Shown: one piece after another, positions 1 to 32,000 of the stretch
Layout of the letters: each line of letters starts with the position of its first letter
How positions within the stretch are numbered: the first letter of the stretch is position 1
Notes under the pieces: generated by a model
What the model saw: the letters and a program-made list of their open reading frames with translations, nothing else
Told to the model about the DNA's origin: nothing
The model's database searches: none
Assembly: GCF_040549045.1 (NCBI RefSeq)
Contig: NZ_JBEWTB010000002.1
Span: 4,790,462-4,822,461 of the forward strand
Direction of reading: 5' to 3'
Length of the DNA stretch: 32,000 bases
Source: Endozoicomonas lisbonensis
GTDB lineage: Bacteria; Pseudomonadota; Gammaproteobacteria; Pseudomonadales; Endozoicomonadaceae
Made by a program: the position numbers and the translations under genes

Positions 1-13
1 AGAAAGAACAGCA

Positions 14-634: not shown

Positions 635-655
635 ATGAGAGATGGAATCGAATTA

Positions 656-3716: not shown

Positions 3717-3718
3717 CG

Positions 3719-4473: not shown

Positions 4474-4494
4474 GGGGGGGAAAGTCTCGAAAGA

Positions 4495-5664: not shown

Positions 5665-5674
5665 TGGTTTATTT

Positions 5675-6442: not shown

Positions 6443-6469
6443 AACGGATTCTCTGAAAGAAGAGGAGGG

Positions 6470-7302: not shown

Positions 7303-7306
7303 TGAC

Positions 7307-12028: not shown

Positions 12029-12552
12029 GCGTTTCTCAGAGCATCAATGCGCTGGCGAACATCAGGACGAGTCAGGTAATGCCAGACGGCTCTTGTTGCC
12101 TTCGTATCTGACAGGGCGCGATGCGCCTCTCCCTCCCATTTGTGCAGGACATACCGACTGGCCTTGTTAAGATTCTGCCATTTGTAATTGCCATAGCGAT
12201 GGTTCCATTCACCGAAGTGTTCGGCAAAGAGAAGCATGCAACACTGGACGCTTTTTGCGACTCCAAGCTCAGTACCCAGGTATTGGCTGTCGTATGCCTT
12301 GTTGTAGATCACGACTTCCTGATCCTGAAACAATGTCCGGATTGTCGGGCGTAGCGCATCATACGTAGGTGCATGGGCAACCTCTTTCGGGCTGATTCCG
12401 TGAATCGCCTGAGCTTCTGGCCAACAATCATGGTGTGTTGGTTTAACCAGCGTGTTCAGTAAAGCTTCACCATTATCATCGATAATGGCTATTTCAACGA
12501 TTTCGTCTTGGGCGCTCAGGCCGGTGGTTTCAGTGTCAACGTAAATAGTCAT
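12025..12552 (-). CDS. DEDDh 3'-5' exonuclease (DnaQ/epsilon-like domain protein)
   Basis: Exo I IYVDTETTGL, Exo II VVIYNKAYDSQYL, Exo III HRALSDTKATR (H-x4-D). It is 175 aa with ATGA overlaps at both ends (traC stop and trbC/traW start). Confidence 0.85.
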   Translation of the reverse strand: MTIYVDTETTGLSAQDEIVEIAIIDDNGEALLNTLVKPTHHDCWPEAQAIHGISPKEVAHAPTYDALRPTIRTLFQDQEVVIYNKAYDSQYLGTELGVAKSVQCCMLLFAEHFGEWNHRYGNYKWQNLNKASRYVLHKWEGEAHRALSDTKATRAVWHYLTRPDVRQRIDALRNA

Positions 12553-14966
12553 ACAGCATTCCTGTCTTTCAGTACCTGCATAATGGCATCACTCAGGGAA
12601 AGCCCCTGAGATCGATAAGTTCGGATCGCACTCTCATCTTCGGGATGACTGGAGTAGAGCAGTTTTTTGAATGGGTTCAGAATCAGCCGACCAATTCCAG
12701 ATCCCTGTTCAGTGAGCACCAATGCTTCTGAATACTTGCCTTCCACCGTATGAACGGTTTTTAGCAGTTTGTAGCCTTCTGGTGATAAGGGTAACCGTTG
12801 CTGTTTTTCCAGTTCATTGATGGTGGACAGCTGTTGCTTGAGTAGAAACTGAGTGGCGCTGTTATCCATTGCTGCACGCCCAGCAGCGGTTTCGTAGAAA
12901 TCTTCGATCCGCTGTGCGGCCATGAGATTGGCTCCATTAAATCGTCGAAAGCGACGGAAACCGTGTTCAATGAACAAAGCGGCTCCCTGAGTGTCCCGCA
13001 TCAGGTTCCAGGCTTCATCAATCACGACCAGTTTCCTTCGGCTGACATCACCAAAGTACATAATCTGCTGGATCAGGTAGATCAACTCCAGAATTACGAC
13101 TCGCTGAAGGTGTTTGCGACTGTCCAGGTGCCGCAACTCCAGCACTGTAAATGACTGGTTGATATCCAGCGTATTGTCACCACAGAAAAATCGACCATAT
13201 TCGCCTTTTGAAGTGAAGGCACTGAGCTGCACGGCGAGGTCGGTTATACGTTCATCCGGATGTTGCTGTAATCGTTCCTGTAATAGGTCAATGGAACTAT
13301 CGGTACCTTCACCTTCCCAGAGTTCCCGAATCTGCTCCCGTAAACTGGCTTCCTGGTACGGCGTTAATGGCTCTCTTGGTGACACCATAGCAATAATCAG
13401 CGCCAGCAGAATATCACCTTCCTCTTCATAGTCATGAACCAGGGCAAAGGGGTTCATACCAATCTCACTGCCCTGATCAAAATCCAGAAACAGTCCATCA
13501 AAATGCTGGCAGAGTTTCTTGTACCCCTCGCCAATATCCAGTGCCCAGCACTGCCCACCACGAATCAGAATATTACTGATAATCTCATTGACCAGGACAG
13601 TTTTGCCCGCTCCGGAAGTGGCGGCAATAATGGCGTTGTAGTTACTATTGGATTCAAATAGCGACAGGTTCATCAGTTGCCCCCGGCGGGACACCATATT
13701 CAACAATGCTTCCTGATGCCCTGACCAGTCATCAAACAGCGGCAGTAATGGAACAGCATGACGGGTCGCCAGGGTCTTCTCATGCATGGCAATGGTTTGA
13801 GTGCTTTTCTGGGCATTACCGGGCAGGGTGTTAAGAAACATCGGAAGCATGAAATACACGTCTTCATAGAGCATGAAACCCAGTTCACGAAAGTAGCTGC
13901 AGGCGTTGGACGACAACCGGCTGGCTTCTTTAGTGGAATTGCAATAAAGCACCAGAGAAAACGTCAGTTTAAGAGGGGCATCACCCTTGTTAAGTGCTTC
14001 AAACAGCAAATCGAAATCTTTCTTGCGCTCCATAAGTCTCGGTTCAAAGCGAGTAATGGGGCTGGAGGCTTGCTGTATAGCAATGCGCTGTTTGTTGCTC
14101 AGTGACGATTGCAGCTGATTGATTGAGGGGAAATGGAGTAGTACATGAATATGAGCGTAACACTTGATACCCCGGTGTCCGTTCTGGCTGTCACCCAGAT
14201 AATTGAATGCCTGTCCCAGCGGTACATAGGCTGGCAGCTTCTTGGCGATCAATACTTTTGCGACTCTGGATTTTTGTTCAGAACCCAGTTGAATCTCATT
14301 CGGTGAGACTTGCAGTGGGGTATCAGGATCGAATACCTGTCGATTCAGAGGTCTTTCTGAATCCACCTGAGCACCATCGATTGCCCAATGTCCGTGCTCA
14401 TGATGATTCACAAGAATCATGTTCAGGCGCAGCCAGTCATTTTGGCTCATGGGAACAGATAACAATCCGGCGGTTTCAATCCCTCCCTGGAAGGAAGATT
14501 TAAGCCGACGGATTTTCAGTAAATCATCTTCGTTGGGTGACAGCTCTCGGGTAGGAACTTTAACGGTGAACCATAAAATCCCATGCCTCAGCATTTGTTC
14601 ATTGGTGACTGGGTCATGAACGCCAGACTGCAACTGCTGAATATTCTGTTTCAGCATGGCTTTGAAACGTGGTTCAGTTCGGTCCTTCGCCAGCATCAGT
14701 TGGTGAATGGTGTTCATCACATCGGGGCTGGAGATCAGACCACACTGCAACAGAGTATCGTCAGGCCAGTCCTGATTGAGTAATCCGTTCAGCCGGTCAT
14801 CCAGTCCACTGTCCAGACCGCTGAGAGGCAAGCTGAGAAATCCGAAAAACAGATGTTTATCGTCGCATAAGAAAATCTGGCTTTCAGGGTCATACGCCCG
14901 GGTAGTGAGCAGTGAATCCGTATATTGCGGTTCTACAGGCACAGTTGTATTGGCGTTGGCGAACAT
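12549..14966 (-). CDS. traC: TraC (VirB4-family conjugative transfer ATPase)
   Basis: 805 aa. Walker A IIAATSGAGKTVLVNEI and Walker B RKLVVIDEAWNLM. Size and position are typical of F-like TraC. Confidence 0.9.
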   Translation of the reverse strand: MFANANTTVPVEPQYTDSLLTTRAYDPESQIFLCDDKHLFFGFLSLPLSGLDSGLDDRLNGLLNQDWPDDTLLQCGLISSPDVMNTIHQLMLAKDRTEPRFKAMLKQNIQQLQSGVHDPVTNEQMLRHGILWFTVKVPTRELSPNEDDLLKIRRLKSSFQGGIETAGLLSVPMSQNDWLRLNMILVNHHEHGHWAIDGAQVDSERPLNRQVFDPDTPLQVSPNEIQLGSEQKSRVAKVLIAKKLPAYVPLGQAFNYLGDSQNGHRGIKCYAHIHVLLHFPSINQLQSSLSNKQRIAIQQASSPITRFEPRLMERKKDFDLLFEALNKGDAPLKLTFSLVLYCNSTKEASRLSSNACSYFRELGFMLYEDVYFMLPMFLNTLPGNAQKSTQTIAMHEKTLATRHAVPLLPLFDDWSGHQEALLNMVSRRGQLMNLSLFESNSNYNAIIAATSGAGKTVLVNEIISNILIRGGQCWALDIGEGYKKLCQHFDGLFLDFDQGSEIGMNPFALVHDYEEEGDILLALIIAMVSPREPLTPYQEASLREQIRELWEGEGTDSSIDLLQERLQQHPDERITDLAVQLSAFTSKGEYGRFFCGDNTLDINQSFTVLELRHLDSRKHLQRVVILELIYLIQQIMYFGDVSRRKLVVIDEAWNLMRDTQGAALFIEHGFRRFRRFNGANLMAAQRIEDFYETAAGRAAMDNSATQFLLKQQLSTINELEKQQRLPLSPEGYKLLKTVHTVEGKYSEALVLTEQGSGIGRLILNPFKKLLYSSHPEDESAIRTYRSQGLSLSDAIMQVLKDRNAV

Positions 14967-15043
14967 TCGGCATTTCCCGGCTGATTTGAACTATGTTGAT
15001 TAACGCAAGTGAAAACTCAGTAGGTAGCTACTGGGAGGTGAGG

Positions 15044-15415
15044 ATGATGAATTTGTTAAAACGGATTAAAGGGTTTGTTGCGAGTCTGGCATTGCTGACT
15101 ATTTGTTGTTTGCTGTTGGAGCAGTTAGGGTACCTGGTTTTGGTTCCGGGCTATGGCTGGAAGCTTCTGAGTTCTCCGGTTCTCTGGAGCCTGTTTTCTG
15201 TTGTGTGTTTTTCTCTGCTATGGCGGTTTGACCGGAAGTACCCTGAAGATAATTCTGTTCCAATTGACTGCGAAGGCTGGAGCCCCAAAAGAAGAATAAA
15301 TCCAGCGACTGGCTTGCCAATGGCAGGTGGCATTGATAGCTCTGGCGCGACTTATGGAGGGCGGCCAGAGTCAGGTTTGATGAAATCAGACAACTTCTGG
15401 CTCATATCCCTTTGA
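15044..15415 (+). CDS. Small two-TM inner-membrane protein, opposite strand (entry-exclusion Eex-like candidate)
   Basis: Strong SD GGGAGGTGAGG lies directly upstream of tandem ATGs at 15044/15047. Hydrophobic helices FVASLALLTICCLLL and VLWSLFSVVCFSLLW are followed by a soluble tail with INPATGLPMAGGIDSSG. It fills the only large gap in the tra operon and converges on the traG 3' end with a 64-nt overlap. The function is inferred. Confidence 0.5.
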   Translation: MMNLLKRIKGFVASLALLTICCLLLEQLGYLVLVPGYGWKLLSSPVLWSLFSVVCFSLLWRFDRKYPEDNSVPIDCEGWSPKRRINPATGLPMAGGIDSSGATYGGRPESGLMKSDNFWLISL

Positions 15416-18400
15416 GTTCTCGATAGCTTGCTTGATGACTCTTGAAAACGGCCTTTATCCTGTCTGCCGAACACCCTCTGATTGTTATCTAACTGTCGCT
15501 GCTGAATCTCTTTCCCGACATTGCTGCCAATATGTTCAGGAGGCATAGTCGTATCAAGATAATTGCCCTCCATCGGAAGTAAAGACTGCCCTTTCAACCA
15601 TTTTTCAACTGACTGTTCATACTGTCTCAGTTCTGGCTGGTAGAGCCGATTCATCTCTCCGATAAGTGTGAGTGCAGCATCGGTATGCTGCGGATTATCT
15701 GCGGCGTGGGTCAGATGATTAAATGCGTGCTGACCTAATACAGCTCCATGGTCTCCCCAGCCTCTACTGATCTCAGCAATGGATTGCCCCAGACGATGAC
15801 GACGATCTTCCGGATCAGAGCTTCGTTCATATGTTGGATCACGATCTTTAACCAATGACGCAAACGTCGCAGCCTGAGTATCCGTAAGACCTTGGGATAC
15901 GGCTCTATCAAAAGCTTCGTTATAGGTCAGCTTAAGCCCAGGTCCCGATGTGGAAGGGGCTGTACCATAGGCACTGTGTTTTAGCAGGCTGGTGATGTAG
16001 GGCTTACTTTGACCAGAATGGAGGAACTGGCCACTAATCGATTGACTGAACTGATTATGGGTTTTAGCCAGAGGCTGGAGAGCCTTGGGCAATTGTCGTA
16101 GGGCAGGTGATTGAAGATTTGCCTCTTGTAAGGTTTTTGATTCTGGTAGCTGGCTGGATTTTGACAGGCGTTGTTTAACCTGGTCGTCGCTTAGGGTTTC
16201 AGGTTGACGTAATGATCTATTCACAGTGCCTGCAAGACTGCCATCACTGACTGGTTGTGAAACCAATGACTGATTGGATTCAGGGCTGTGCTTCTGAGTA
16301 TCTGAGCTGATTATGCCCGCTTTCTGCAAAGCTTCACCCAGCCTTCCCAAATCTGTCTCACTGGAACTATTCAGATAAGTTGAAACCAATGCCGCAGCCA
16401 GTGTTTCTGATGAGTTGGCAAACTGCCCACTGAATCGTTGAACATTGCGGTTAACCTGCTGCTGGAACTCAGGATCAAAGGGCTTTGATTGCAGTATGTT
16501 CATGGCTGGTTCTGAAGTTGCCAGGCGGTTTGTCCAGACAGCAGGGCCACTTTTCAGAGCCTGTCCCAGTTGTTGCTGTAACTGACTGGCTTGCTCATAA
16601 CTCTTTTCGTTAGTAAGACTGTCCTGCGCCATTTTCTGGTAGGACTGGTTATCAGTTATACCCAGTTCTTTCATCCAGCTTTGGGAATAACTTTGACTGG
16701 CGTCCATTGAGAGGGCTTTCTGAAGTTGAGAACTCCAGTTCTTTGAAAAGCTTTCTTTGTTCAGGTATGAAATTGCATTCTGGAACACATCTGTCTTGAT
16801 CTCTCGGTTGGCTCCAGTGCTTTGCTTTTGATAATTTCCGTGAACTCCAAATAAGCTGCCCAGCAAGCCATTTTTCGAAATACCAGCTCCGGTTTCAAGT
16901 ATCTTTGTAGTTGCCATATCTTTAGCTGTTTGAGAGTTCAGACCAAACTGTTTTTGTAAATCTCTCGCTAAATCATCCCTCATCTGGGCGGTCTGGCTTT
17001 GGCCTGTGCTCAGGCTACTGCTGAACTGCCGTAACTCCCGGCTATCAATAGTGTCACCATACCGTTGCTGAATCGCATGACTGGTTGCCTGGCTGAAAGC
17101 CATCCCGGAAGATTTTCGTGCCGCATCTTTCGATTGCACGAGATTGGATAGGTGACTACCGGCCGATAATGCCGGAACCACCTGATCAATCTGTCCGCGA
17201 GTCGCTCCCTGTTGTGGTCCGATATTCCAGCCTGCCTGCTGGTTGATGGCAGAACCGGGCATCATAATATCTGGGGCAGAAACCTTCTCATTTACGAAAT
17301 CACCGCTTTGCATTCTGCCAGCAAGGTGAGTAGCGGTTATGGCACTGCCATAGAGCAACATCAGAACCAGGGCTGGGGTAGACGCTGCCATCAGACCTCC
17401 AACACCTAACCAATATTCCAGAATCGGTCCCGACTCCATAATTCCGGTGAAACTGGTGATCGGAGCTGAAAGTGCAGCCATCGCTCCCTGTGAGACCAGA
17501 GTAATATAAAGGTTATTGATCGCAAGTACTGGCATCCACAGCTGAATCCATAACAACAGCATCAGATATTTGAAGGCCAGACGGACTCCAAACAATCCGA
17601 CACAGACCAACAACCCCATCAGTGGAGTCACTGCAAACACAAATCCTTCGATATAAGCCATCATTGCCCGCATACTACTCAGAAACAAATGCTGTTCGCC
17701 TGCCCACTGGGTATTGCGCTGCAATATTGCCTGCTGGGTCATAATGGCAGCTTGCGGTTGTTGCATGTTCTGTAGTTTTTCGATGGTGGCATCGTGATAT
17801 ATGGGGAGCAGGGCAGAAGCCATCAGAAAATTACGGCTCGATTCGGCACCCTGGCTTAATGCCTGTAGTGCTGAACCCAAGGATAAGTTTCTGTCAGGGA
17901 AGGCGTTTTCTCTTTGAATCTGCTGATCGAACCAGCTCATCATTCTCGGCTTCAACCAGGTGAATGCTTCTGTGCAGGTCACATTGGTAGGCTGACTATT
18001 TTTATAAATCAAAGTCCCGAATACTTCAGAAGGAAATTCCAGTGCGGCTAGAATATCGCTGTTATTGAAGACCTCATGAACTGTCTTGAAATTCAGATCA
18101 ATGCCAATCAGGGTGCATTCCTTGATGTAGTTTCGCCATGACTGAGCCAGCGCCGGATTGTTCTGAAACTGGTTCATAGCTTTGCTACGAGCTTCCATCA
18201 TTCGAGTCAGACTGGACAAATACCCATTACGGGTGAGCTTTGCAGCATCGGTACTATGGAAAGTTTGCTCAAAGGTTTCCGTCAGCTTCCAGGTCAGTGT
18301 TGAAAGCATACTGGCTGTCAGGACGATACCAAATGGCACATTATCGACCTTGCGGTTGGTGTCGGTGTAAACATCATATATATCTACATCGATACCCTTG

Positions 18401-18642
18401 TAGCTCTTGCCAGCCGCAGGCAAACCAAACAGAGCTGAGTAAATCAGCAGGCTTAGCAGCAGATGTTGAAATGCCGGGAACTTGCCAGCCATCAGCCCCT
18501 GTAGAGCGAGATAAAATGCACCAATAGTGAAACCAATCTTGATGGTCATCAGGAATTCAGGATCATTGACGATCATCACCAGGCCATTCAGGACGGTGTA
18601 GAGAAATCGAGCGTCGCCAATGGAATAAATGGTTTCTATCAT
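15352..18642 (-). CDS. traG: TraG (F-type mating-pair stabilisation / pilus assembly protein, TraG_N family)
   Basis: 1096 aa. The N-terminus MIETIYSIGDARFLYTVLNGLVMI and a multi-TM N-terminal half are typical of F/SXT TraG. A long Q/S-rich C-terminal half follows. ATGA overlap with the traH stop. Confidence 0.85.
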   Translation of the reverse strand: MIETIYSIGDARFLYTVLNGLVMIVNDPEFLMTIKIGFTIGAFYLALQGLMAGKFPAFQHLLLSLLIYSALFGLPAAGKSYKGIDVDIYDVYTDTNRKVDNVPFGIVLTASMLSTLTWKLTETFEQTFHSTDAAKLTRNGYLSSLTRMMEARSKAMNQFQNNPALAQSWRNYIKECTLIGIDLNFKTVHEVFNNSDILAALEFPSEVFGTLIYKNSQPTNVTCTEAFTWLKPRMMSWFDQQIQRENAFPDRNLSLGSALQALSQGAESSRNFLMASALLPIYHDATIEKLQNMQQPQAAIMTQQAILQRNTQWAGEQHLFLSSMRAMMAYIEGFVFAVTPLMGLLVCVGLFGVRLAFKYLMLLLWIQLWMPVLAINNLYITLVSQGAMAALSAPITSFTGIMESGPILEYWLGVGGLMAASTPALVLMLLYGSAITATHLAGRMQSGDFVNEKVSAPDIMMPGSAINQQAGWNIGPQQGATRGQIDQVVPALSAGSHLSNLVQSKDAARKSSGMAFSQATSHAIQQRYGDTIDSRELRQFSSSLSTGQSQTAQMRDDLARDLQKQFGLNSQTAKDMATTKILETGAGISKNGLLGSLFGVHGNYQKQSTGANREIKTDVFQNAISYLNKESFSKNWSSQLQKALSMDASQSYSQSWMKELGITDNQSYQKMAQDSLTNEKSYEQASQLQQQLGQALKSGPAVWTNRLATSEPAMNILQSKPFDPEFQQQVNRNVQRFSGQFANSSETLAAALVSTYLNSSSETDLGRLGEALQKAGIISSDTQKHSPESNQSLVSQPVSDGSLAGTVNRSLRQPETLSDDQVKQRLSKSSQLPESKTLQEANLQSPALRQLPKALQPLAKTHNQFSQSISGQFLHSGQSKPYITSLLKHSAYGTAPSTSGPGLKLTYNEAFDRAVSQGLTDTQAATFASLVKDRDPTYERSSDPEDRRHRLGQSIAEISRGWGDHGAVLGQHAFNHLTHAADNPQHTDAALTLIGEMNRLYQPELRQYEQSVEKWLKGQSLLPMEGNYLDTTMPPEHIGSNVGKEIQQRQLDNNQRVFGRQDKGRFQESSSKLSRTQRDMSQKLSDFIKPDSGRPP

Positions 18643-20072
18643 TTGGTTTTCTGATAGTGTGCAGAGTGATCAGGTTCCAGATGAAGCCTCTGGTATCGTT
18701 TCTGTTCAGCCACCGCCAGCATATGGCGATAATCCTGAATCAATTCACCAAATCGGCCATAGCGTTCTCCCAATCTTTGAAGTTCCTGGTGTAGCTGTGT
18801 TTTTGAAGACTTCAAAGTCTCCTGAAGCTGTTGAGCGAATGGATGATAGTCACCTTCCATTTTCACCAGCGAGACCGTGATATGGTGCAGGTCTTCCATA
18901 AACTGATGCACCATGTAAAAAGCAATATGGGGTGCTGCCTGGGCTATAAACAGTTTGGCTAACTGAACGTCGGCAGCCGTTAGGTTGCGTATCATACCTC
19001 CGGTGCCGACAGGCAAATTCTGAAGCAGTGCTGTGGCTGAAACACCGTTTACTGTAAGCAGGGAATCTTTTGCGTTGCGATGCCAGTGATCAGCCAAAGC
19101 ATTCAGCAATTGGATTAAGTGCTCAGACAGCCCAGAGAGTTTCTGCTTATCCATCAATGTCATAGACAAACAACCTGAGTGGTTACGACAACGGTACAGA
19201 CCCACCTGCTCAGAGCCGTAAATCAGGTCTTCCACTTTCAGCTGGTTACCGATATAACTGAAAAGCCGTGGTTGAGTATCACCAGAATCCATGGAAACAA
19301 TGATCGTCCCGGTCAGGCTCATAACTGCTTCCCGATATTCATTGCCGGTAATGGCTGAAGATTTTTTCAGTGCATTCCACACCAGATTCCCCAGCATCTT
19401 TTCCTGATCCTGTGGACTGGATGATTGCCGCCAGGCTTTCACCGGATCACGGTTGGATAATCCAGTGCCGGTAAACGACTGGAAAGTATCAGCAACATTG
19501 GCACGGCTGATATTGAGCGAAGCATCGGTCTGAAACTTCTTCATGGCCGCAGGCATCGGCATACTGTTCACTATGCCTTGCCCCATTTGGCAGGAATTGG
19601 AGAACAGACTGTTTAGGTGCATGATCTTTTCCTGCAAGGCTTCAATATGCTGATACGCCTTTTCGTTCATGGCGCTGATTGCCAAACCCAGAAGATAACC
19701 AGAAGCATTGCCGGCAATGTCCCGGATCAGTTTGTTGAACTGTTCGCTGTTGATGAAAGAAAACGAGCCTCCATATAGATCAATACCACCGCAGCCTGCT
19801 GAAAACTCAGGAGGCACAAAGCCCATAAGATTGGTCTCGTTGATCCGGGTTCGGGCATGAAAAGAGCCTCCTGAAATAACTCCACGACGTTGAGTCTGAT
19901 ATACCGCCGGATCAGAACTGCTGGAAAGAGTGTTTAGCATTTTGTTCAGTTCCTGCTGTAGTGAACTGGCATGGACCAGCGCTATACAACAGGCAATGAG
20001 TAAACCTGTGAGCAGCAATTGATAAAATGGTTTATGGCTGCTCCTGATCTTTTGGATTGTTCTCTTCATCAT
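18639..20072 (-). CDS. traH: TraH (periplasmic pilus assembly protein)
   Basis: Signal peptide LLLTGLLIACCIALVHA. TraH hallmark SAGCGGIDLYGGSFSFINSEQF...AGNASGYLLGLAI. The start is taken at the tandem ATG 20072/20069. The upstream part of the tracked ORF overlaps the preceding gene. Confidence 0.85.
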   Translation of the reverse strand: MMKRTIQKIRSSHKPFYQLLLTGLLIACCIALVHASSLQQELNKMLNTLSSSSDPAVYQTQRRGVISGGSFHARTRINETNLMGFVPPEFSAGCGGIDLYGGSFSFINSEQFNKLIRDIAGNASGYLLGLAISAMNEKAYQHIEALQEKIMHLNSLFSNSCQMGQGIVNSMPMPAAMKKFQTDASLNISRANVADTFQSFTGTGLSNRDPVKAWRQSSSPQDQEKMLGNLVWNALKKSSAITGNEYREAVMSLTGTIIVSMDSGDTQPRLFSYIGNQLKVEDLIYGSEQVGLYRCRNHSGCLSMTLMDKQKLSGLSEHLIQLLNALADHWHRNAKDSLLTVNGVSATALLQNLPVGTGGMIRNLTAADVQLAKLFIAQAAPHIAFYMVHQFMEDLHHITVSLVKMEGDYHPFAQQLQETLKSSKTQLHQELQRLGERYGRFGELIQDYRHMLAVAEQKRYQRLHLEPDHSAHYQKTK

Positions 20073-23132: not shown

Positions 23133-23222
23133 CTGTAGCAATGTTTGTTGTGTCAGTGCAGGACCATACATTGCCTGTTCTCTGTTTAGTTGAGATTGGC
23201 GTGTCTGGCAAGGTTTCTTGTC

Positions 23223-26200
23223 ATGAACAAGTTGTCTGATGATCCGATTGATCCAACTGGCTATCTGCAAGAAAAAAAGCTGGATTTTGCGTTATTGAGT
23301 TCTCTGATTGGTTTGAGAGTTGTAAGGGACTGGTGGTATGGCGATTGTCTTGAGTATCCGCTTATAAACGTCAAAGGGCAGGTAGCTGGCTGTGAGCGAA
23401 TTTATCCGCGAGGTTTGTTGAATAAACGTTGCCCAGATCGCTTCACAGCCAAAGACAACAAAAAGGTCACCAGAGGTACAAAAGTTTCTCAGAACTTTGC
23501 CTTAGTGGGTATTTTTCATGCGGAGCTGCCCAAGTACCTTGGCAGTCTGAGAATCGTTGGCGGTATGGCAGATGCGATTAATGTCTATCTGGCTACTGGT
23601 GAGCCTGTGGTTTGTATCGTCGGAGAGAATAATGCCCGGTCAATTGCGGTACAATTGACTCAGGAATGGCCGCACCTTGCCCGGAATCTGATTGTTGCTC
23701 TTGATCACGATCTGCCGGGAATAATGGCCTGTCATCGGGCAGGTTTTCGGTGGGTAGTACCGCAAAGATATGGTGAGGACTGGAGTGATGTTCGAATTGA
23801 TGCCGGATTACAGAGTTTAAAGCGACAACTGAAGTGGGTGAGAGAGCCTATTCAGCCCATCGATTTAAAATCTGTACCTGCACCTGCTGTCGAGATGGCA
23901 AAGGACAATTTCTGTGGTGACTATCAAAGCGCCCTGAAGCTTCTTGCCAAGGCCAATAATGAGCAATGTGCAGCAACACTGGCGAAAGCCATTGTCAGCC
24001 GGTTTCACCATAAGGTGCCTGCCCAGTGCGATGAGCATGATTTTATCCATAGGATTCAGGCTGCAAACCCTTACCTTCTGCACCCTGATACACTAAACCA
24101 GCTTAAACGGCAGCTAAGCGGCTATTGCTTCAGACAGCAACAGGTGATTCAGGGTGAGTGCGGGTTAAGCTCTGGCAAAAAGAAGTCGCTTGCAGAGCGT
24201 TATCATTCTGTTTCAGCTATCAATCCCAAAACCGTTTCTTTGGAAAAAGGGCAGATCACCCTGATCAAAGCCCCTTATGCTTCGGGCAAGACTAAGTTAA
24301 TGTCAGCATTGTCTCAGGCAGCTTTGCAAAAAGGAGATCGAGTTCTGGCAGGTACTCACCTGGTTTCCCTGGCTCATGAACTGGCAAGACGACTGGGGCT
24401 GGAGAGCTATCTCGATATCCCGGAATCGTTTATGGCAACGGTCAACCGACTGGTGACGTGCATCAATAGCTTGTGTGCGCAGAATGTCAGTCGGTTTCTG
24501 GAGTCAGGCAAGATCGATATTCTTCTGCTGGATGAATTTTCACAGCATATTTCTGTACTGGGAACCAGCCCGCATATCAAAGACCCATCAGTACTGGCGC
24601 GCTATCTGGATTTGATTGAACAAACGCCTACCGTCGTCATCTGTGATGCTGACCTGTCCTCTTATCATGTAGGACTGTTGCAGGAGTGGTTTCCAGAACG
24701 GGAAATACACTTTTATGAGATGCCATATTCTCAGGATGTAACCCTTACCTGTCAGTTTGCTACAGGAAGAGCTCAGGCAAAATCGGTCATTGATCACCAG
24801 CTATTACCGTCCATCGCCCAAGGCAGAAAAATTGCGATTGCTACAGATAGCAGGGTGTATGCAGGCAAGATGGAAAAAATCATCCGTAAACAGTTCCCTG
24901 ATATTTCAATGCTGCTGTTCCATGGAAAAAACCGCAATGAACCTGATCAGGTGGCTTTTCAGAAAAACTTTGATCAGGAAGCGCAACGATACCAGGTCAT
25001 CATCTATACACCAGCCATTGAATCAGGCGTATCTATCCAGGCACCGTTCGATCAGGTATTTGGTTTTTCCCATAACGTTGTCTTGCCGACGAAGTTTGTG
25101 CAAATGCTTCGGCGATTCCGGTCTGTCGAGCAGTTTACCGTTGTCGCCGATCTTATTTTCGGCAAAAAAGACAATGAAGACTGGCTGGCTAGAGTACGGG
25201 CATTGCAGTACGCAGAACGCTATGTTCGCAACACCGATGGCGTAACCGTTGGCGAATACGACGGGTTTTGTGAAGAAGAACGTAGCCGACAGATAAAGCT
25301 TAAGGCACTGGGCGGCAATGGTCTTTTTTACCTAATGCAAAGCAGAGGGTTTTCTATGGAGTATTACCAAGGCAGGCAGCAGTCTGAATATTTTGAATTG
25401 TGCTGGAAAGTTACTGAAGAGGAAGTGGAAAAAGAGGAGAGGGCGGCGATACAGCAATCGCCCATTGTGTCTGCAAGCCAGTACGATGAACTGTCTCATA
25501 AAGTAGAGCCAAGGCTGCAGGAGATATGCAGCTGTGAACGCTACCGAATATGTGAAGAGCTGGGCATTGAGGCAGTAGCCCTGAAAGAAGAAGATATAGA
25601 GTTTTGGCAAAGAGTTGGGCTGACACGGCTCAGACGATTCATGCAGTTCCCATTGCCGGATGGTAGCCACTACCAACCGCAGCCAGATCAGGAAGGCACT
25701 TCCATTTGTCACCGGCGGTTTGAATCAATCGGTGTCGATGTTTATCGAGAGCTTCTGATACCGTTATTTCCCAACTGGGATTACCAGCAATCCTGGGGGG
25801 AGTCGGAAGCAGAGCTGGTTCTAGACAGGGTTGAGGCTTACCACAACGAATATCCCTTCATGCTGAACCAGCTCAAACTGATACCGGATTCTGTAATCTT
25901 GAACACGGTGGAAGGAGCAAAATTCCAACGCCCAAAATCTGCCTGCAATTTCGTCAACCGATTACTGAGAATGGCTGGTTTGGTCATCAGTAGTCAGCAG
26001 ATTCGCACAGGGGAAATGCTTCCTGACACTGGCAAAGAAAAGCGAGTAAGGCGCTACAGTATCAATCAGGAATCACTGGCTTGCATGCGTGGCTATGCCC
26101 GTTCCAGAGCGGCTCACAAGCAAATCAATCTGGCACACACTGGTGTGAATAGTATAAAAATAAAGCAAAGTGTGACACCCTACAATCAAAAGCTTGAAGG

Positions 26201-26354
26201 GGTACCTTCACAAGAAGATGGTATGGATAATACAGAAAAACCAGTAAGCGGTAATGTTGCTTTATGTCTCCATGAGATGAATTTTTGTGATAGGAAAAAT
26301 TATCTCAGGAGATTGAAAAACCAGCAACTGAAGATATCCTCAGGTGATTTGTGA
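23223..26354 (+). CDS. Toprim-domain + SF2 (origin-binding-protein/CyRepA-like) helicase; putative primase-helicase or replication initiator
   Basis: Toprim: conserved Glu in VVCIVGENNARS and DxD in IVALDHDLPG. Helicase: Walker A IKAPYASGKTKLMS, Walker B DILLLDEFSQH, later VIIYTPAIESGVSI. It also has a long alpha-helical C-terminal region. The tracked ORF starts at TTG 23190; ATG 23223 (MNKLSDD) is preferred. Confidence 0.8.
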   Translation: MNKLSDDPIDPTGYLQEKKLDFALLSSLIGLRVVRDWWYGDCLEYPLINVKGQVAGCERIYPRGLLNKRCPDRFTAKDNKKVTRGTKVSQNFALVGIFHAELPKYLGSLRIVGGMADAINVYLATGEPVVCIVGENNARSIAVQLTQEWPHLARNLIVALDHDLPGIMACHRAGFRWVVPQRYGEDWSDVRIDAGLQSLKRQLKWVREPIQPIDLKSVPAPAVEMAKDNFCGDYQSALKLLAKANNEQCAATLAKAIVSRFHHKVPAQCDEHDFIHRIQAANPYLLHPDTLNQLKRQLSGYCFRQQQVIQGECGLSSGKKKSLAERYHSVSAINPKTVSLEKGQITLIKAPYASGKTKLMSALSQAALQKGDRVLAGTHLVSLAHELARRLGLESYLDIPESFMATVNRLVTCINSLCAQNVSRFLESGKIDILLLDEFSQHISVLGTSPHIKDPSVLARYLDLIEQTPTVVICDADLSSYHVGLLQEWFPEREIHFYEMPYSQDVTLTCQFATGRAQAKSVIDHQLLPSIAQGRKIAIATDSRVYAGKMEKIIRKQFPDISMLLFHGKNRNEPDQVAFQKNFDQEAQRYQVIIYTPAIESGVSIQAPFDQVFGFSHNVVLPTKFVQMLRRFRSVEQFTVVADLIFGKKDNEDWLARVRALQYAERYVRNTDGVTVGEYDGFCEEERSRQIKLKALGGNGLFYLMQSRGFSMEYYQGRQQSEYFELCWKVTEEEVEKEERAAIQQSPIVSASQYDELSHKVEPRLQEICSCERYRICEELGIEAVALKEEDIEFWQRVGLTRLRRFMQFPLPDGSHYQPQPDQEGTSICHRRFESIGVDVYRELLIPLFPNWDYQQSWGESEAELVLDRVEAYHNEYPFMLNQLKLIPDSVILNTVEGAKFQRPKSACNFVNRLLRMAGLVISSQQIRTGEMLPDTGKEKRVRRYSINQESLACMRGYARSRAAHKQINLAHTGVNSIKIKQSVTPYNQKLEGVPSQEDGMDNTEKPVSGNVALCLHEMNFCDRKNYLRRLKNQQLKISSGDL

Positions 26355-26476
26355 AGCTAAACAGAATTAGTTATAGTGTTTCCTGTTGATAAATGATGTT
26401 GTTATCAGTTTACAAAATATAGCCATACTTTATGGCACCTTAACCTCGATAACCCAGAATACGAATGAGGTGGAAT

Positions 26477-29400
26477 ATGACGACGGATACGTCTAGTTCG
26501 TTTAATTCGATAATTATAAATGCCATCACTAAAGCAGTAGAGCTATCTTCTGGCAAGTCCACCAAAAAACATGATCAAAAACAAAAAATTGCAGGTTTTT
26601 GTGGAGTTGGCGGGCCTACAGGCACAGGCAAGACGAGCGCTTTAACTCGATCTGGTGATGATGGTACTTCTGCTGCTCTGGAGTATATATTAAAGCAGGG
26701 CTATCAATCAGTTTTTGTTACTCACCGTTGGAACATTCTGCAAGACGTGTATCGTGCTGTTGCAAAACGTACTGACAGTCAAGGGAATCCCTTTAGAGCT
26801 AGTGTCATTTACGCCCAAGTCGATACAATACTGGCTGCATTCTTAAAAAAAACACTTCCTCATGAAATTGGTATCCAGTATGAGGATTTGCCTGATCCAG
26901 AAGAAGAGCTTTCTGTACTAGAGAAAGAAGGGTTATTCATTGACGAAGGCTTATCTGAAAAAATTCGCATCGAGTATCAGGGATTAATATCGAGTACTCA
27001 GTATCTTGAGCAGATCAAAAAATATAATCGAAATCCAAACGCTGTTACTGAGCAAAGAAATCTCGAAGAAAAAATCCAGTGGTCATGTAGTCAAATTGAA
27101 CACTTGTTACTTAAAAATCTATATAAACTCGAATCTTTGCTAAAGGAGTTTGAGAAAAAATCACAAACTGATGATCCAATAACGGATGAATACAGAGAAA
27201 GTGTAAAAAAATACCGCTCAAACCCTCTGATACGCAGAATTTTTCCTGCTATAGCCTGGCATGATGAGCAGCAACATATATTGATCATGACAACCCATAA
27301 GCTATATTCTGGTTTTTACGATGGGGTATCAAAGGTTCGTCTTGCTCAAGGAGGTCTTGAAGGCAGAGTAGTTTTTATTGACGAGTTTGATTATCAGGCT
27401 GATGTACTATTGGATTTACTGGCTGAATCACAATTAATACAAGAACCACCTCAATGCCTTGGGCAGTTATTAGAAGAGGGAAGAAGAGTATTATGTAGAC
27501 TGCGTTATATAAAAAGCCCTAACGTTAAGACAGTATATAAAAATCTATCTGAAATTTTGAATGAACTTGAGGAAAAGTTAGATGAGATGGGGGTCGATCT
27601 AAGATCATTACGTGCACTTGTGGTTCCTCTGGACAATGACGACAACCCTGTTTCATTTAAAGAGCAGTATCTCTTTCGTGCCGACCACTTGGTTACCAGT
27701 AAATCGCTGACATTGCGGGCGCAAGAACATGGCTATGTGGTATCTGAACGACAACCTGGGCCTCCTTCACCGGAAGATATTTATATCGAAGACTTTCTCA
27801 GGGTAATGGAGACCTATCTGAGAAAATTCACAATGCTCCTCACTGAGCTGTCTAGCTCCGAGAATGATCAGGCACAGTCGTTGGTCAGCAGGTTTAGTAG
27901 TATCCTTTTCGACTCAGTGAACGATTTTAAACCGGCATACTACAGCTCAGCACTGGCAAGAATGTCACTTAAGGCTCCAGCGAAGACAAATTTTGCTGAA
28001 ATTACAGAGTTGGCAAAGGACAATATCCTCCCTAACAGTCACGCCAATATTTATGGCTTTAGCAATTGGTTACTACGAGAAAACCCTGATCATGCTGATG
28101 TGGATAAATTACGACTTCAAATAAAGCGTGCTTTCTTACCGACGACTCCAGAGGCTTTATTAGTCAGCCTGGCGAGTAGGAACATGGTATTTGGTCTATC
28201 AGCGACATCATTTATTGAGCGTGCTGTTGGTCACTTTGATATTCGCTGGGTTCGAACAGCTCTACGCTATGTAGGGGAGGCCAGAACTAAATCGCTGACA
28301 AATTCTTTCCTTGGAGTGCAGTTTAACGAGCGTCCAGAAAACTGGTTCTCTAAGCCAATTCCATATGTTGAATCAGAGTCGGATATAGAATTTCAACAAT
28401 GCTCAATCAGTACGATAAAAGAAGCCAAACAATCCTTGCGGCAAACTCAGGCAGAAATTGTAATTAACAAGTTCAATACTCTGTATCAAAGTGAGCCTTT
28501 TCAGGAGTTGCTCGAAAGTTTGCCCCTAGACTTCTTCCAGAGAGGGAATTCAGAACTTAATGAATTCACTGAGAAACAGCGACATCAAGTGCTAGCAAAA
28601 TTACTTGAAGTCATTCAGCTTGCTTCAGAGAGATCGCAACATAAAGGGCAGTTAGCTTTTGTAAATTCAATCTATTTTTTGCGTAAGTGGTTAACTGAAC
28701 AGCAAGCGGAATACAGCTGGAATCAACTTTCTTGGTTGCATAAAGATCAAGAGTTTTATAATGAAAGCAATAAGATGCTAGAACCCTTGAAGGGTTTCGA
28801 AAGTAGCTTTGTCCCTGTGATTTGTCATAACCAGCCAATGATTCTATGTTTGCTAACCGCTCAAAATCAAAAACAACGGGGCTTTGATCGGGCTTATCAG
28901 GCAGCTTTCAATAGTGGAAGGATTGTTCTGGTAATAACCCAAAATGCATCAGCTACAAATGGCATTAATTTGGATTTTGAACATCCTGAGCTTGGTTGTA
29001 TGATGGATTTGAGCTGTCTTTACTTGATAGAAGGTCGGCATTACTTTTTCTCAGCTTATAACTCTGAGGATCGTGATCCTATGGCTCATTCAGGTGTTCA
29101 AATACGTAACCTGGACAAACTCCGACGTTCTGGTGAGTTATCAAGAGAACAGCATCGGTATTTCTTGTTACCTTTAATGAACAATGATTCAAAACTCATT
29201 CAACGCTTGAACCGCCTTTATAAACAAACGAATGATTATGTAGGGAATATAGCCGCTGATGCTCAGCAGCAAGTTGGGCGTATTGAAAGAGTATGGGGTT
29301 CAGTTCCAGAGGTTGAAATCCATGTTTCAGAGCCGGTAGCTGAAGTATTAGCTCGGTTTGCGGCATTACCTTATGCCTTTGAAAATCACCGAGATCAGAT

Positions 29401-30439
29401 CAGCGACCTGAACAATCAGTTGCTTGATTATATCAATAATTGGGCAGCGAGTCAGGGCGGTGATTTCTTTGAACAGCTTACAGCTGCTGTTCAAGATGCT
29501 AATACAGCTCAAACAATAATTGATGACTATTTGATTGGACGAATTAAAGCCAGTAGATCTCCAGAAACCAAACAGGAGGAGGTTATTGAAATATCCAAAC
29601 TATGGAGTAGTTTGGGTAAGGCTGTGCTGCAAATGGATCTTCCCTGGAAAAGAAAATGCAGTGAACTCGGTCTTGACGGATTTGGTTCTATTTCCCTTTA
29701 TGAATGGGCATGTATTGAATATCCAGAAAACCATATTTCAGGACAGCCGATATGGTATGACCCTGATACTTGGCAGTTTTTTAAAACGCCAGATGCTGGC
29801 AGAATCCAATATCAACCTGAAACCCTTTACCAGTGGATTCAAAAACATACTTCAATCATAGATTGGTTCAACAAAAGAGGATTTCGTACCTCCATGTATC
29901 CCCCAGCTTCAGAACTTGAGGAAAGATTTTCTTTTCATCCATTGGTTAGTCAGCGACTGTTGCAGGGACGATTGGGTGAAGAGGCTGTTAGGGGATTGCT
30001 GGAAGGGCACAAAATACAAACTCATGCATACCTGAATCATAAACAAGTTCTTGAGCTATATGATTTTACAGTAGTCGACACTGTTTACCGTGTTGATGCC
30101 AAATTTTATGGCTTGGCAAGCCTTAATATGGCTGATGATGACTATCAATTATGGATAGAAAGAGGTTGTGATGAAGATACTGCACCTCTAAGTTTGATAA
30201 AAAAACTCAAAGCTATTCGGGCAGCCGAAGGAACTGAGATATGTCTTGTAATCGTAAATTTAGTTGCTCAACATGCAGATACTAGGCTGTTGGGATTTGA
30301 TCAGAATTTATCTCCTGTTAATGACGTTAATGAAGCGGATATTGTTGTACTTGGCGGCTGTCTTACAGATGATCCACTTAACCGCTTAACACCAGGTTTT
30401 GGCCAATTAGTAAATCTCCTTCGGAAAATGAGCAACTAA
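26477..30439 (+). CDS. Large SF2 helicase with C-terminal PD-(D/E)xK nuclease domain (DdmD-like architecture)
   Basis: Motif I GVGGPTGTGKTS, motif II VVFIDEFDYQ, motif III VFGLSATSF, motif V/VI-like VITQNASATNGINL and QQQVGRIERV. The C-terminal ~130 aa contain GRLGEEAVRGLL ... LYDFTVVDTVYRVDAKFYG (D...D-x-K). SD GAGGTGG precedes ATG 26477; ATG 26465 is an alternative start. The DdmD call rests on domain architecture and gene neighbourhood, not on a search. Confidence 0.7.
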   Translation: MTTDTSSSFNSIIINAITKAVELSSGKSTKKHDQKQKIAGFCGVGGPTGTGKTSALTRSGDDGTSAALEYILKQGYQSVFVTHRWNILQDVYRAVAKRTDSQGNPFRASVIYAQVDTILAAFLKKTLPHEIGIQYEDLPDPEEELSVLEKEGLFIDEGLSEKIRIEYQGLISSTQYLEQIKKYNRNPNAVTEQRNLEEKIQWSCSQIEHLLLKNLYKLESLLKEFEKKSQTDDPITDEYRESVKKYRSNPLIRRIFPAIAWHDEQQHILIMTTHKLYSGFYDGVSKVRLAQGGLEGRVVFIDEFDYQADVLLDLLAESQLIQEPPQCLGQLLEEGRRVLCRLRYIKSPNVKTVYKNLSEILNELEEKLDEMGVDLRSLRALVVPLDNDDNPVSFKEQYLFRADHLVTSKSLTLRAQEHGYVVSERQPGPPSPEDIYIEDFLRVMETYLRKFTMLLTELSSSENDQAQSLVSRFSSILFDSVNDFKPAYYSSALARMSLKAPAKTNFAEITELAKDNILPNSHANIYGFSNWLLRENPDHADVDKLRLQIKRAFLPTTPEALLVSLASRNMVFGLSATSFIERAVGHFDIRWVRTALRYVGEARTKSLTNSFLGVQFNERPENWFSKPIPYVESESDIEFQQCSISTIKEAKQSLRQTQAEIVINKFNTLYQSEPFQELLESLPLDFFQRGNSELNEFTEKQRHQVLAKLLEVIQLASERSQHKGQLAFVNSIYFLRKWLTEQQAEYSWNQLSWLHKDQEFYNESNKMLEPLKGFESSFVPVICHNQPMILCLLTAQNQKQRGFDRAYQAAFNSGRIVLVITQNASATNGINLDFEHPELGCMMDLSCLYLIEGRHYFFSAYNSEDRDPMAHSGVQIRNLDKLRRSGELSREQHRYFLLPLMNNDSKLIQRLNRLYKQTNDYVGNIAADAQQQVGRIERVWGSVPEVEIHVSEPVAEVLARFAALPYAFENHRDQISDLNNQLLDYINNWAASQGGDFFEQLTAAVQDANTAQTIIDDYLIGRIKASRSPETKQEEVIEISKLWSSLGKAVLQMDLPWKRKCSELGLDGFGSISLYEWACIEYPENHISGQPIWYDPDTWQFFKTPDAGRIQYQPETLYQWIQKHTSIIDWFNKRGFRTSMYPPASELEERFSFHPLVSQRLLQGRLGEEAVRGLLEGHKIQTHAYLNHKQVLELYDFTVVDTVYRVDAKFYGLASLNMADDDYQLWIERGCDEDTAPLSLIKKLKAIRAAEGTEICLVIVNLVAQHADTRLLGFDQNLSPVNDVNEADIVVLGGCLTDDPLNRLTPGFGQLVNLLRKMSN

Positions 30440-30455
30440 AAAGGGACTGACTGAA

Positions 30456-32000
30456 ATGAATACTGAAGTAAACCCGCTAGTTCGTAAACTGCCTTTGTCC
30501 CATCTTGTATACAAGGATGATGAAGTAGATCGTGCTCTGGCTGAAAAATTGGTGGTATATCATTACCCTCTACCCAAAAGTAGCTATCGATGGAAGGAAT
30601 GGGAAGGGCTATTAGATCATACCCTCTCAAACAAACAATACCCTTACTTGATGCGGAGTTATAACGGTCAGTTTGGTCTGTTTGTCGCTGTAGATCAGAA
30701 GGAAGATCAACCCCCATATATTGTCAATGCGGATAATCAGCGTATACACCCTCAGAGAATTTACTATGCCCCTTCATTAAATCCTGTCTGGATTCGCCTG
30801 ATTATGCGTAAGCTCGTTGCTTTTGGTAACCATTGCAAAGGTTCTCACACGCTAGGACGCCCACTGTTAAAAGTGGATGTATGGAAAACAAAAAAAAGTA
30901 CAGGTATCAATGCAATTAGTTTGGATTGTCGAACACAACAGCTTAGAGATGGAAATACTACTGAAATAGTACTTTTTTATGAAAATATACCTTTGCGTCC
31001 ATTATCAGAGGATTACGAGTCTCAAAAGATAAGAAAATCACTTTGGGTTTATGCAGAGAAAAAGGTTCTGGTACGTTGGATTCCAAAAAACGGAGAGAAA
31101 CCCACAAGTCCAGTATATTGTGAAATATCCAAAGACAAAAACAAACGCAAAACCAGACCGTTCATTGATTTGGCTAATGAACAGAAATTTAATACAAGCT
31201 GGCCAAATTTAATCCTGCCAGTACAAAGGGAATTCATAAAGTGTGCTGCAGGATACGGATTTGTTTTAAGGCCAAAAGTGCTTAATCTCCAAAGGTTGGA
31301 AAATAAAACCAAATATAAAACAACATCAGATAAAAATCGTACAGGATCAGTTTTCTCAAGCTTGTCACTGGATAAAGAAGTATCTGTACTAGATCTTCGT
31401 GTTAATAAAACAGTAACAACTGGACAAATCATCGACAAACTCAATGCTTTTCTGCAAAAAAGCATGATAGAAGCATCATTTAGGGTAATTGTTGGTTTTG
31501 ATGAAAATAATTTAGATGACTTATCACTCGATCGAAATGATCAGCTACTGATCCTTCTTGATCAACGCCCAAAAGTTCCGGGTGACCGCTATCCTTTGAC
31601 TAGTGTTTTCAAAGGCAAGGTAGCTAGTCAGCATTTGAACGTCAATCCTTATGATTTGACTGATGAAGATGAACTAGAGAATTTATCACTTGGTACAGAG
31701 GAAAAGCCAAGTCCAGCCTACTATCTGTATGACTTTGATGATTTTGATAGAGAGGGCGTTGAAAGCAATCTTAAGAGAAATGCTGAGGTTGTAATTAAAG
31801 AGTTACATCTTAAGCATCTTATTATCTCACCTAAAGCTAGAATCAGTAAATCTCTGAGTAATGAGAAGGAGCTACTCACTGAACACCTGACAGTCATTAC
31901 AGACGGTTATCTTTTTACGGTTAGAAATGATCGGCCAGTGATTTTGCCTTTCAATCCATCGGATAAATCTGCCTTGAATTTATGTGACAGTGTATTAAAG
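30456..32000 (+). CDS. Partial CDS (at least 515 codons, open at the window end); Argonaute-like (DdmE-like) candidate partner of the helicase-nuclease
   Basis: I translated it codon by codon from ATG 30456 (SD AAGGGA upstream) and found no stop to 32000. It starts 16 nt after the upstream stop. It is absent from the ORF track because it is unterminated. LLILLDQRPKVPGDRYPLTSVFKGKVASQHLNV resembles a MID-domain 5'-end pocket (beta strand, loop, Y...K...Q). The PIWI region, if present, lies mostly beyond the window. The CDS is confident; the function is tentative. Confidence 0.6.
   Translation, partial: MNTEVNPLVRKLPLSHLVYKDDEVDRALAEKLVVYHYPLPKSSYRWKEWEGLLDHTLSNKQYPYLMRSYNGQFGLFVAVDQKEDQPPYIVNADNQRIHPQRIYYAPSLNPVWIRLIMRKLVAFGNHCKGSHTLGRPLLKVDVWKTKKSTGINAISLDCRTQQLRDGNTTEIVLFYENIPLRPLSEDYESQKIRKSLWVYAEKKVLVRWIPKNGEKPTSPVYCEISKDKNKRKTRPFIDLANEQKFNTSWPNLILPVQREFIKCAAGYGFVLRPKVLNLQRLENKTKYKTTSDKNRTGSVFSSLSLDKEVSVLDLRVNKTVTTGQIIDKLNAFLQKSMIEASFRVIVGFDENNLDDLSLDRNDQLLILLDQRPKVPGDRYPLTSVFKGKVASQHLNVNPYDLTDEDELENLSLGTEEKPSPAYYLYDFDDFDREGVESNLKRNAEVVIKELHLKHLIISPKARISKSLSNEKELLTEHLTVITDGYLFTVRNDRPVILPFNPSDKSALNLCDSVLK

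Follow-up and report, generated by a model that had tools for sequence, protein, structure and literature searches.

Within a 32,000-nt stretch of Endozoicomonas lisbonensis DNA (the window: NZ_JBEWTB010000002.1, positions 4,790,462-4,822,461, forward strand), we analysed a cassette of two long open reading frames (ORF1 and ORF2) that begins at position 26477. Based on sequence profiles, predicted structures and analogy with characterised systems, we consider this cassette to be probably (at roughly 0.78) a defence module of the DdmDE type, made up of two genes and guided by DNA. Judged by its sequences, the pair is a separate, rare clade of longer proteins, distant from DdmDE and unrecognised by current annotation libraries, and this clade is repeatedly carried by conjugative elements. 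The initial annotation of this DNA had called the cassette DdmDE-like or a new relative of that system, a proposal that is supported by matches in fold, in profile and in guide-pocket residues.

DdmDE, known from Vibrio cholerae and Lactobacillus casei, consists of a helicase-nuclease, DdmD, and DdmE, a 'long-C', catalytically inactive, DNA-guided prokaryotic Argonaute (pAgo). DdmD is an autoinhibited dimer that translocates 5'-to-3' on single-stranded DNA and has single-stranded DNA nuclease activity, DdmE uses short 5'-phosphorylated DNA guides against DNA, and the system targets small plasmids; the substitution K55A in DdmD abolishes plasmid elimination and K1102A abolishes activity (DdmDE literature). 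The cassette shares with DdmDE its arrangement as two co-oriented, adjacent genes with the helicase-nuclease gene first, as well as its siting on horizontally acquired islands. Its features, in window coordinates, are the following.

26477-30439, forward strand: ORF1, 1320 amino acids (1324 if the in-frame ATG at 26465 is used)
26612-26638, forward strand: helicase motif I (Walker A) GPTGTGKTS, residues 46-54, with K52 corresponding to DdmD K55
26714-26740, forward strand: motif Ia-like FVTHRWNIL, a signature of the clade
27374-27391, forward strand: helicase motif II (DExx box) FIDEFD, residues 300-305, aligning with DdmD LDEFD
28193-28210, forward strand: helicase motif III GLSATS, residues 573-578, aligning with DdmD GLSATA
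29264-29290, forward strand: helicase motif VI QQQVGRIER, residues 930-938, aligning with DdmD QALGRMNR
29966-30112, forward strand: PD-(D/E)xK nuclease core, with E1168 in GRLGEEAV (residues 1164-1171), D1196 in LYDF (1194-1197) and D1207-A-K1209 in RVDAKFYG (1205-1212)
30440-30455, forward strand: intergenic spacer of 16 nt containing AAGGGA, a possible ribosome-binding site
30456-32000, forward strand: ORF2, with ATG at 30456; the first 515 of 828 codons, covering the N-terminal domains, MID and the first PIWI strands
31155-31217, forward strand: motif RPFIDLANEQKFNTSWPNLIL, common to DdmE-like proteins (IPFLDFSNLNEFKDSKIGIL), from the hhalign alignment with DdmE-like N-terminal fragments
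31545-31643, forward strand: MID strand-loop-helix-strand with D369, Q370, D377, Y379, Q392 and H393, a predicted pocket for the 5' nucleotide/phosphate of the guide
31791-31820, forward strand: MID helix VIKELHLKHL with E449 and K453 (E-x3-K)
31887-31916, forward strand: first PIWI strands LTVITDGYLF, with D483 at the end of strand 1

The motifs that had initially been read in ORF1 were all found at their sites in the 1320-residue frame. This form is 100% identical to an NCBI protein (P0064) retrieved by database search, and the 1324-residue form had no record in an exact-sequence look-up. The same search returned ca. 45 clusters of ~1300-residue hypothetical proteins that are 30-51% identical to ORF1. 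In an alignment of 38 homologues (31-51% identical), the residues G46, T48, G49, G51 and K52 of the Walker A motif, T82, H83, R84, N86, I87 and L88 of the motif Ia-like signature, D302 and E303 of motif II, S575 and A576 of motif III, and Q931, G934, R935, E937 and R938 of motif VI are all invariant, as are E1168, D1196, D1207 and K1209 of the nuclease. Such invariance of the key residues is far above chance. Searched against the PDB as a single sequence, ORF1 already had DdmD as its best match (expectation value, E, 0.009), and with the family profile the match to DdmD reached E 1.3e-8 over four collinear stretches, i.e., motifs II, III and VI and the nuclease region, the latter aligning with ELFDF...VIDFK of DdmD. 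A hidden Markov model (HMM) of the ORF1 family also matched five DdmD-like N-terminal fragments (E 2e-7 to 1e-2).

The predicted structure of ORF1 gives the same picture over its full length. The AlphaFold model covers residues 121-1320 and has a predicted local distance difference test score (pLDDT) of 84.0 and a predicted template modelling score (pTM) of 0.80. In a Foldseek search of the PDB with this model, the top 17 matches were all DdmD, from V. cholerae and L. casei (E 2e-30 to 1.5e-23; template modelling score, TM, 0.42-0.50), with ~1250 aligned columns at 14-15% identity and with the C-terminal nuclease part included; the first fold other than DdmD was DinG, at E 2e-3. In the model, the nuclease residues occupy a helix and the strands after it, and these elements follow the alpha-beta-beta-beta-alpha-beta arrangement typical of PD-(D/E)xK nucleases. 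The interpretation of ORF1 as a superfamily 2 (SF2) helicase with a C-terminal PD-(D/E)xK nuclease, which the initial annotation had made dependent on the C-terminus modelling as a restriction-endonuclease fold, is upheld by this core, by the invariant motifs and by the DdmD matches in sequence and fold.

ORF2 starts 16 nt downstream of ORF1 and stays open for at least 515 codons to the end of the window, as had been described. The layout is operon-like, and homologous loci have the two genes directly adjoining or overlapping each other; a scan for promoters and terminators gave chance-level results only. Extension of the contig, which had been proposed as a check, recovered the remainder of ORF2, and the full-length protein of 828 residues was reconstructed by completion from E. 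lisbonensis contig JBEWTD010000002.1 (5.07 Mb; assembly GCA_040549065.1). This contig differs from the window in a single base, an additional T at window position ~31078 (L001 ~9908; CGTTTGG vs. CGTTGG in the window), which shifts the frame of ORF2 and yields genes of 222 and 590 amino acids. Because the family consensus agrees with the window reading (…KVLVRWIP…), without the extra T, we used that reading for the completion.

The partial ORF2 retrieved ca. 60 clusters of hypothetical proteins of 800-835 amino acids without a Pfam domain. Neither as a single sequence nor as a family profile did ORF2 find a DdmE or another Argonaute in the PDB, and its homology surfaced only via fold search, profile-profile alignment and intermediate proteins. 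Its fold was derived from an AlphaFold model (pLDDT 84.3, pTM 0.77) of a Vibrio alginolyticus homologue, P0005, which is 48-52% identical. The six best Foldseek matches of this model were DdmE structures from the two species, in handover and holo complexes (E 5e-20 to 4e-13, TM 0.57-0.64), followed by more than 100 Argonaute/PIWI structures from E 3e-10 onwards. The possibility raised at the outset that ORF2 would lack any MID/PIWI resemblance can, therefore, be set aside on the strength of this homologue. Both genes of the cassette thus have full-length fold matches to their DdmDE counterparts. For the profile-profile alignment, a DdmE family alignment was seeded with the DdmE-like entries in the supplement of the ApsAB paper (PMC11096173) and verified against V. 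cholerae DdmE in the PDB (E 2.8e-52). With hhalign, the ORF2 family aligned with this DdmE family at E 5e-5 over 633 collinear columns, spanning residues 35-819. One shared motif is visible by eye (RPFIDLxxxxxFxxSW vs. IPFLDFSNLNEFKDSK), and F236, S248 and P250 are invariant in the ORF2 family. Among 1.84 billion representative proteins, the ORF2 profile had only 70 matches, 27 of them below 1e-30. In the weak tail of these matches, ten full-length proteins are recognised by the HMMs of both ORF2 and DdmE, so that the two families are bridged. These ten proteins (P0197, P0199, P0204, P0208, P0211, P0212, P0214, P0216, P0218 and P0228; 685-790 amino acids) may represent further intermediate clades of DdmE-like Argonautes. 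The resemblance to DdmDE had been described as architectural only, and this has to be revised: sequence homology is weak but real, as is evident from E 1.3e-8 for DdmD, E 5e-5 for DdmE and the ten intermediates.

The agreement extends to the residues that hold the guide. In V. cholerae DdmE, residues Y363, Q376, E401 and K405 hold the flipped 5' nucleotide of the guide and its Mg2+-bound 5'-phosphate, with E401 and K405 contacting Mg2+ and the 5' nucleotide, and mutagenesis has shown that the MID pocket residues are essential in vivo (DdmDE literature). By hhalign, Y379 and Q392 of ORF2 align with Y363 and Q376, and E449 and K453, in the KELxLK helix, with E401 and K405. Y, E and K are invariant in the matching columns of the DdmE family, and D369, Q370, D377, Y379, Q392, H393, E449 and K453 are invariant in the 35 ORF2-family sequences that we compared. 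The segment that was initially likened to an Argonaute 5'-phosphate pocket corresponds to residues 364-396 and aligns with the pocket residues of DdmE that were defined by experiment. Likewise, LTVITDGYLF, suggested to begin the PIWI domain, comprises residues 478-487 and coincides with strands 481-485 and 488-493 of the homologue model. Further into the PIWI domain, the model shows an all-helical block of ~130 residues (~590-715) between PIWI strands, which aligns with region 496-568 of DdmE, the site of the INS/DID domain. In DdmE this domain lies inside PIWI and contacts DdmD (DdmDE literature).

Several points weigh against assigning the cassette to the DdmDE type. In sequence, the two proteins are no more than 11-15% identical to DdmD and DdmE. 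Scans of ORF1 and ORF2 with Pfam, NCBIfam and PADLOC gave no match at E up to 0.1-1; for PADLOC (version 2.0.0) this null is uninformative, because in a control genuine DdmD, DdmE, ApsA and ApsB fragments also remained without a match to a relevant model. The protein modelled for ORF2 is a ~50% identical homologue and not the window protein itself, and the hhalign probability for ORF2 and DdmE is only 67%. The C-terminal Mg2+ ligands K674 and E678 of DdmE are not conserved in ORF2, which has T791 and R795 at the aligned positions, although a conserved basic-acidic pair on the same C-terminal segment (K/R795 and E/D798) may, from the alignment, stand in for them. Finally, the PIWI half of ORF2 contains acidic residues that DdmE lacks, i.e., the nearly invariant D492 and D573 and the invariant D730, D774 and D776.

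These acidic residues leave room for an active site in the PIWI domain. ORF2 could, then, be an active slicing Argonaute with ORF1 only processing or extending the damage, much as in long-A pAgos that have accessory nucleases; D483, the residue closing PIWI strand 1, would fit such a role, and the DdmE positions aligned with the acidic residues of ORF2 are not conserved. However, the strand-1 position is variable (D in 20 of the 35 sequences, E in six, N in five, and A, L, R and Q once each), and the nearest structural relatives are the inactive DdmE proteins, so that we regard a slicing ORF2 as improbable. Apart from the PIWI residues, the pair differs from DdmDE in length (~1300 + 820 vs. 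~1190 + 690 amino acids, each protein being ~130 residues longer), in an ORF2 MID insertion of ~40 residues with the invariant Y422 and Y425, and in being much rarer.

The second characterised system to be considered is ApsAB of Escherichia coli ST38, a two-gene antiplasmid operon on genomic islands with an Argonaute-like partner (PMC11096173). ApsA (1569 amino acids) has an N-terminal extension of ~170-200 residues and its Walker A motif at residues 218-222, and ApsB (743 amino acids) has a Y-x3-K...QG...K motif and is described as having neither a typical PIWI nor a typical PAZ domain (PMC11096173). Operon structure, Argonaute-like partner and island location are shared with our cassette, as is the broad superfamily on the helicase-nuclease side: ApsA and DdmD fall into one PSI-BLAST superfamily, and ApsAB-like systems occur in gammaproteobacteria and cyanobacteria (PMC11096173), groups that also include carriers of the ORF2 family. 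In addition, a pair from Oceanisphaera profunda (1295 + 769 amino acids), which the ApsAB authors retrieved with an ApsA query, belongs to the family of the window pair, because the ORF1 HMM scores a 400-residue fragment of it at 5e-138; it also contains the FVTHRWNIL string. All this would be compatible with a cassette of the ApsAB type in which ORF2 works like ApsB. However, the same authors list the Oceanisphaera pair as 'Unclassified'/'Unclassified' with 13% identity to ApsA (Supplementary Data 8 of PMC11096173), and this single line is the only prior trace of the clade in the literature searched. In comparisons over residues 1-400 of ApsA and ApsB, the ORF2 profile matched the ApsB N-terminal profile only at E 0.26 and non-collinearly, as against E 1.5e-3 and collinearly for DdmE fragments, and the ORF1 HMM, with its five DdmD-like matches, found no ApsA fragment; none of the weak-tail proteins matched the ApsB HMM. 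Moreover, ORF1 is 1320 residues long and carries Walker A at 46-54, as in DdmD (K55), and not near residue 220 as in ApsA. On these truncated ApsA and ApsB sequences, the clade leans to DdmDE rather than to ApsAB, and we rejected membership of ApsAB as very improbable based on the profiles, the HMMs and the position of Walker A.

A mechanism may be proposed for the ORF1-ORF2 pair from its homology to the DdmDE systems of V. cholerae and L. casei. The MID pocket of ORF2 (Y379, Q392, E449, K453) would bind a short 5'-phosphorylated DNA guide, and the loaded protein would base-pair with invading DNA, most likely plasmids, opening a displacement loop (D-loop). The helical insertion in the PIWI domain would recruit ORF1, which would load on the displaced strand, translocate using ATP (K52; D302/E303) and, with its nuclease (E1168, D1196, D1207, K1209), nick or degrade the DNA, leading to elimination of the plasmid. 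The type of guide, the target (plasmid or phage), a DdmD-style autoinhibited dimerisation of ORF1 and the slicer inactivity of ORF2 would all be carried over from DdmDE in this proposal. In general terms, such a scheme resembles type I CRISPR-Cas, where a guide-bearing module (Cascade) opens a loop and passes the displaced strand to a helicase-nuclease (Cas3), an analogy that the DdmDE papers themselves draw. It is an analogy and not membership: the cassette has no CRISPR array or Cas proteins, its guide protein has an Argonaute fold, and its nuclease is of the PD-(D/E)xK type whereas that of Cas3 is HD.

The two genes are consistently linked. We found 31 loci among 185,579 species scanned (one genome per species), and in all of the ~25 species-level loci with enough upstream sequence the gene immediately preceding the ORF2 homologue encodes an ORF1 homologue; the same two-gene unit emerged from each of five look-ups in further assemblies. 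The neighbouring genes are typical of defence islands. They include Gabija-like OLD and UvrD genes in Serratia, BREX together with a TIR protein of Thoeris in V. alginolyticus, and also type I restriction-modification and HipAB and AlpA regulators. In E. lisbonensis, the genes downstream of ORF2, beyond the window (L001 11866-21475; window ~33036-42645), encode PDC-S14 (GIY-YIG/DUF4357) and a PLD-family nuclease, and the island continues with Septu PtuA and PtuB, type III Mod, a split Res and then a DUF4391 protein. With such neighbours, the same machinery may serve mainly against phages or, on an integrative and conjugative element (ICE), may exclude or kill rival conjugative elements rather than small multicopy plasmids. 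ApsAB reduces the conjugation frequency of incoming plasmids, which would fit the exclusion of rival elements, and it is inactive against eight phages (PMC11096173). Both characterised relatives act on plasmids, and the sequence itself does not discriminate a plasmid from a phage target; we consider a main role other than against small plasmids unlikely, though with a higher chance than a slicing ORF2.

The split type III restriction enzyme gene of assembly GCA_040549065.1 (334 + 657 amino acids; L001 16389-19407) parallels the split ORF2 of that assembly, its halves matching profile positions 1-314 and 334-984 of a single 989-position model. The breaks in the two genes reflect either indel errors in the assembly or a genuine loss of function of these defence genes. 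Elsewhere, the cassettes of Alteromonas macleodii (L002 18374-22457) and Rheinheimera sp. NSM (L008 1005-5525) adjoin gcvT, gcvH and gcvP with different companion genes, which suggests that this site is a shared chromosomal integration hotspot. In the Alteromonas locus (L002 12454-18228), two unannotated genes of 291 and 1632 amino acids without a Pfam domain follow the ORF2 homologue, the first overlapping its stop codon; they may represent an additional component or a separate system.

A second lineage of the cassette, with proteins 44% identical to those of the window, occurs in near-identical form (copies 89-98% identical at the protein level) in at least 12 genera of marine gammaproteobacteria, among others Vibrio, Alteromonas, Pseudoalteromonas, Photobacterium, Marinomonas, Parashewanella, Porticoccus, Oleiphilus, Methyloprofundus, Rheinheimera and Nitrincola (loci L022, positions 557-17847, L024 and L037; also L023, L025-L029, L034, L038 and L039). 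In at least three genera it lies beside traI/traD of SXT/R391-type ICEs. The order in L022, L024 and L037, the loci with sufficiently long contigs, is WYL regulator, type III Mod and Res, ORF1-like, ORF2-like, DUF4268, MobH TraI and SXT-type TraD, with the contig of L037 starting after WYL and that of L024 ending within TraI. This position just upstream of traI, which we take to be variable hotspot 5 of SXT/R391, also accords with an anti-phage role of the machinery. Hotspot 5 is known to carry phage-defence genes, and in the literature searched no paper links a DdmDE-like system to it. The near-identical copies across at least 12 genera imply, as far as sequence comparison can tell, that the second lineage has spread recently and widely by conjugation.

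The cassette of E. lisbonensis itself lies beside the following features of the window.

14-23119, reverse strand: conjugation module with DtrJ-like protein, SXT-type TraD, MobH-like relaxase, TrbI, TraN, TraU, F-type TraC, TraG and TraH
23190-26354, forward strand: CyRepA1-family replication/helicase protein, 1054 amino acids, directly upstream of the cassette and not a part of it

The module contains a TraD of the SXT subfamily (622 bits vs. a cutoff of 366) and an F-type TraC (617 vs. 567), and the window is adjoined on the left by genes for TraF and a DUF1233 protein and, at ~1-2.3 kb from the window, for a tyrosine integrase. Beyond the integrase (L005 3237-4661), a Fic-domain protein and helix-turn-helix regulators are encoded. 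The MobH-like relaxase (window 2481-3716, reverse strand) has only 411 amino acids and a score of 114 bits, where the NCBIfam cutoff is 200, compared to 716 amino acids and 412 bits for the SXT-type relaxase in L022; the relaxase of the element may have diverged or been shortened, and this matters for the question of whether the element can still transfer itself. The conjugation genes (1-20000) have a GC content of 47-49%, the cassette (26001-32000) one of 38-41%, and the downstream defence genes (L001) again one of 45-47%. Since the cassette differs from both flanks, it looks like a separate acquisition. GC content and gene context fit a cassette that is cargo on an integrated conjugative element. 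Its inclusion in the ICE is only inferred, because the right-hand end and the attachment (att) sites were not found: no tRNA gene was detected as a candidate attachment site, and a comparison of the sequence left of the integrase with the 10 kb downstream of ORF2 revealed no direct repeat of at least 15 nt. Of the initial description of the cassette as cargo beside a conjugation module, the adjacency stands, with the module and an integrase nearby, and the placement inside the ICE is putative.

The 1054-residue protein passes the cutoff of its NCBIfam model (NF042913; 209 vs. 200 bits) and has a weak Pfam match to Herpes_ori_bp/AAA_30, so that the integrated element may replicate autonomously. 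With this gene directly upstream of the cassette and transfer genes beside it, ORF1 and ORF2 might be thought to serve the DNA processing of the element itself, as a helicase-nuclease for replication or transfer, and not defence. This is, however, scarcely credible. Most other genomes, e.g., those of Alteromonas, Serratia, Rheinheimera and V. alginolyticus, have no replication or transfer genes within 10 kb of the pair, the CyRepA1-family gene is absent beside the cassette in all other loci and is thus never co-conserved, and the folds match a known defence system. We have, therefore, rejected a role in the processing of the ICE's own DNA and retain the reading of the cassette as a defence module of the DdmDE type.

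To our knowledge, no characterised system other than DdmDE and ApsAB has an Argonaute-like protein that passes target DNA on to a helicase-nuclease. It is conceivable, although we consider it rather unlikely, that the clade described here is a third, functionally distinct branch beside them, with a possibly catalytic acidic cluster in PIWI, a two-tyrosine insertion in MID and different C-terminal ligands for the 5'-phosphate, that is spread by conjugative elements as an anti-plasmid weapon; the carriers seen are the ICE of Endozoicomonas and SXT/R391-type ICEs in many marine genera. DdmDE and ApsAB shape which plasmids a bacterium keeps, and the clade extends this family of Argonautes and helicase-nucleases to proteins unseen by Pfam, NCBIfam and PADLOC. 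Its distance in sequence, together with the conservation of the key residues, helps to define what is essential in DdmE and DdmD. On conjugative elements, it provides a testable case of a mobile element armed against others, and it could affect the flow of plasmids and resistance genes in marine Vibrio, Alteromonas and Shewanella and in coral-associated Endozoicomonas.

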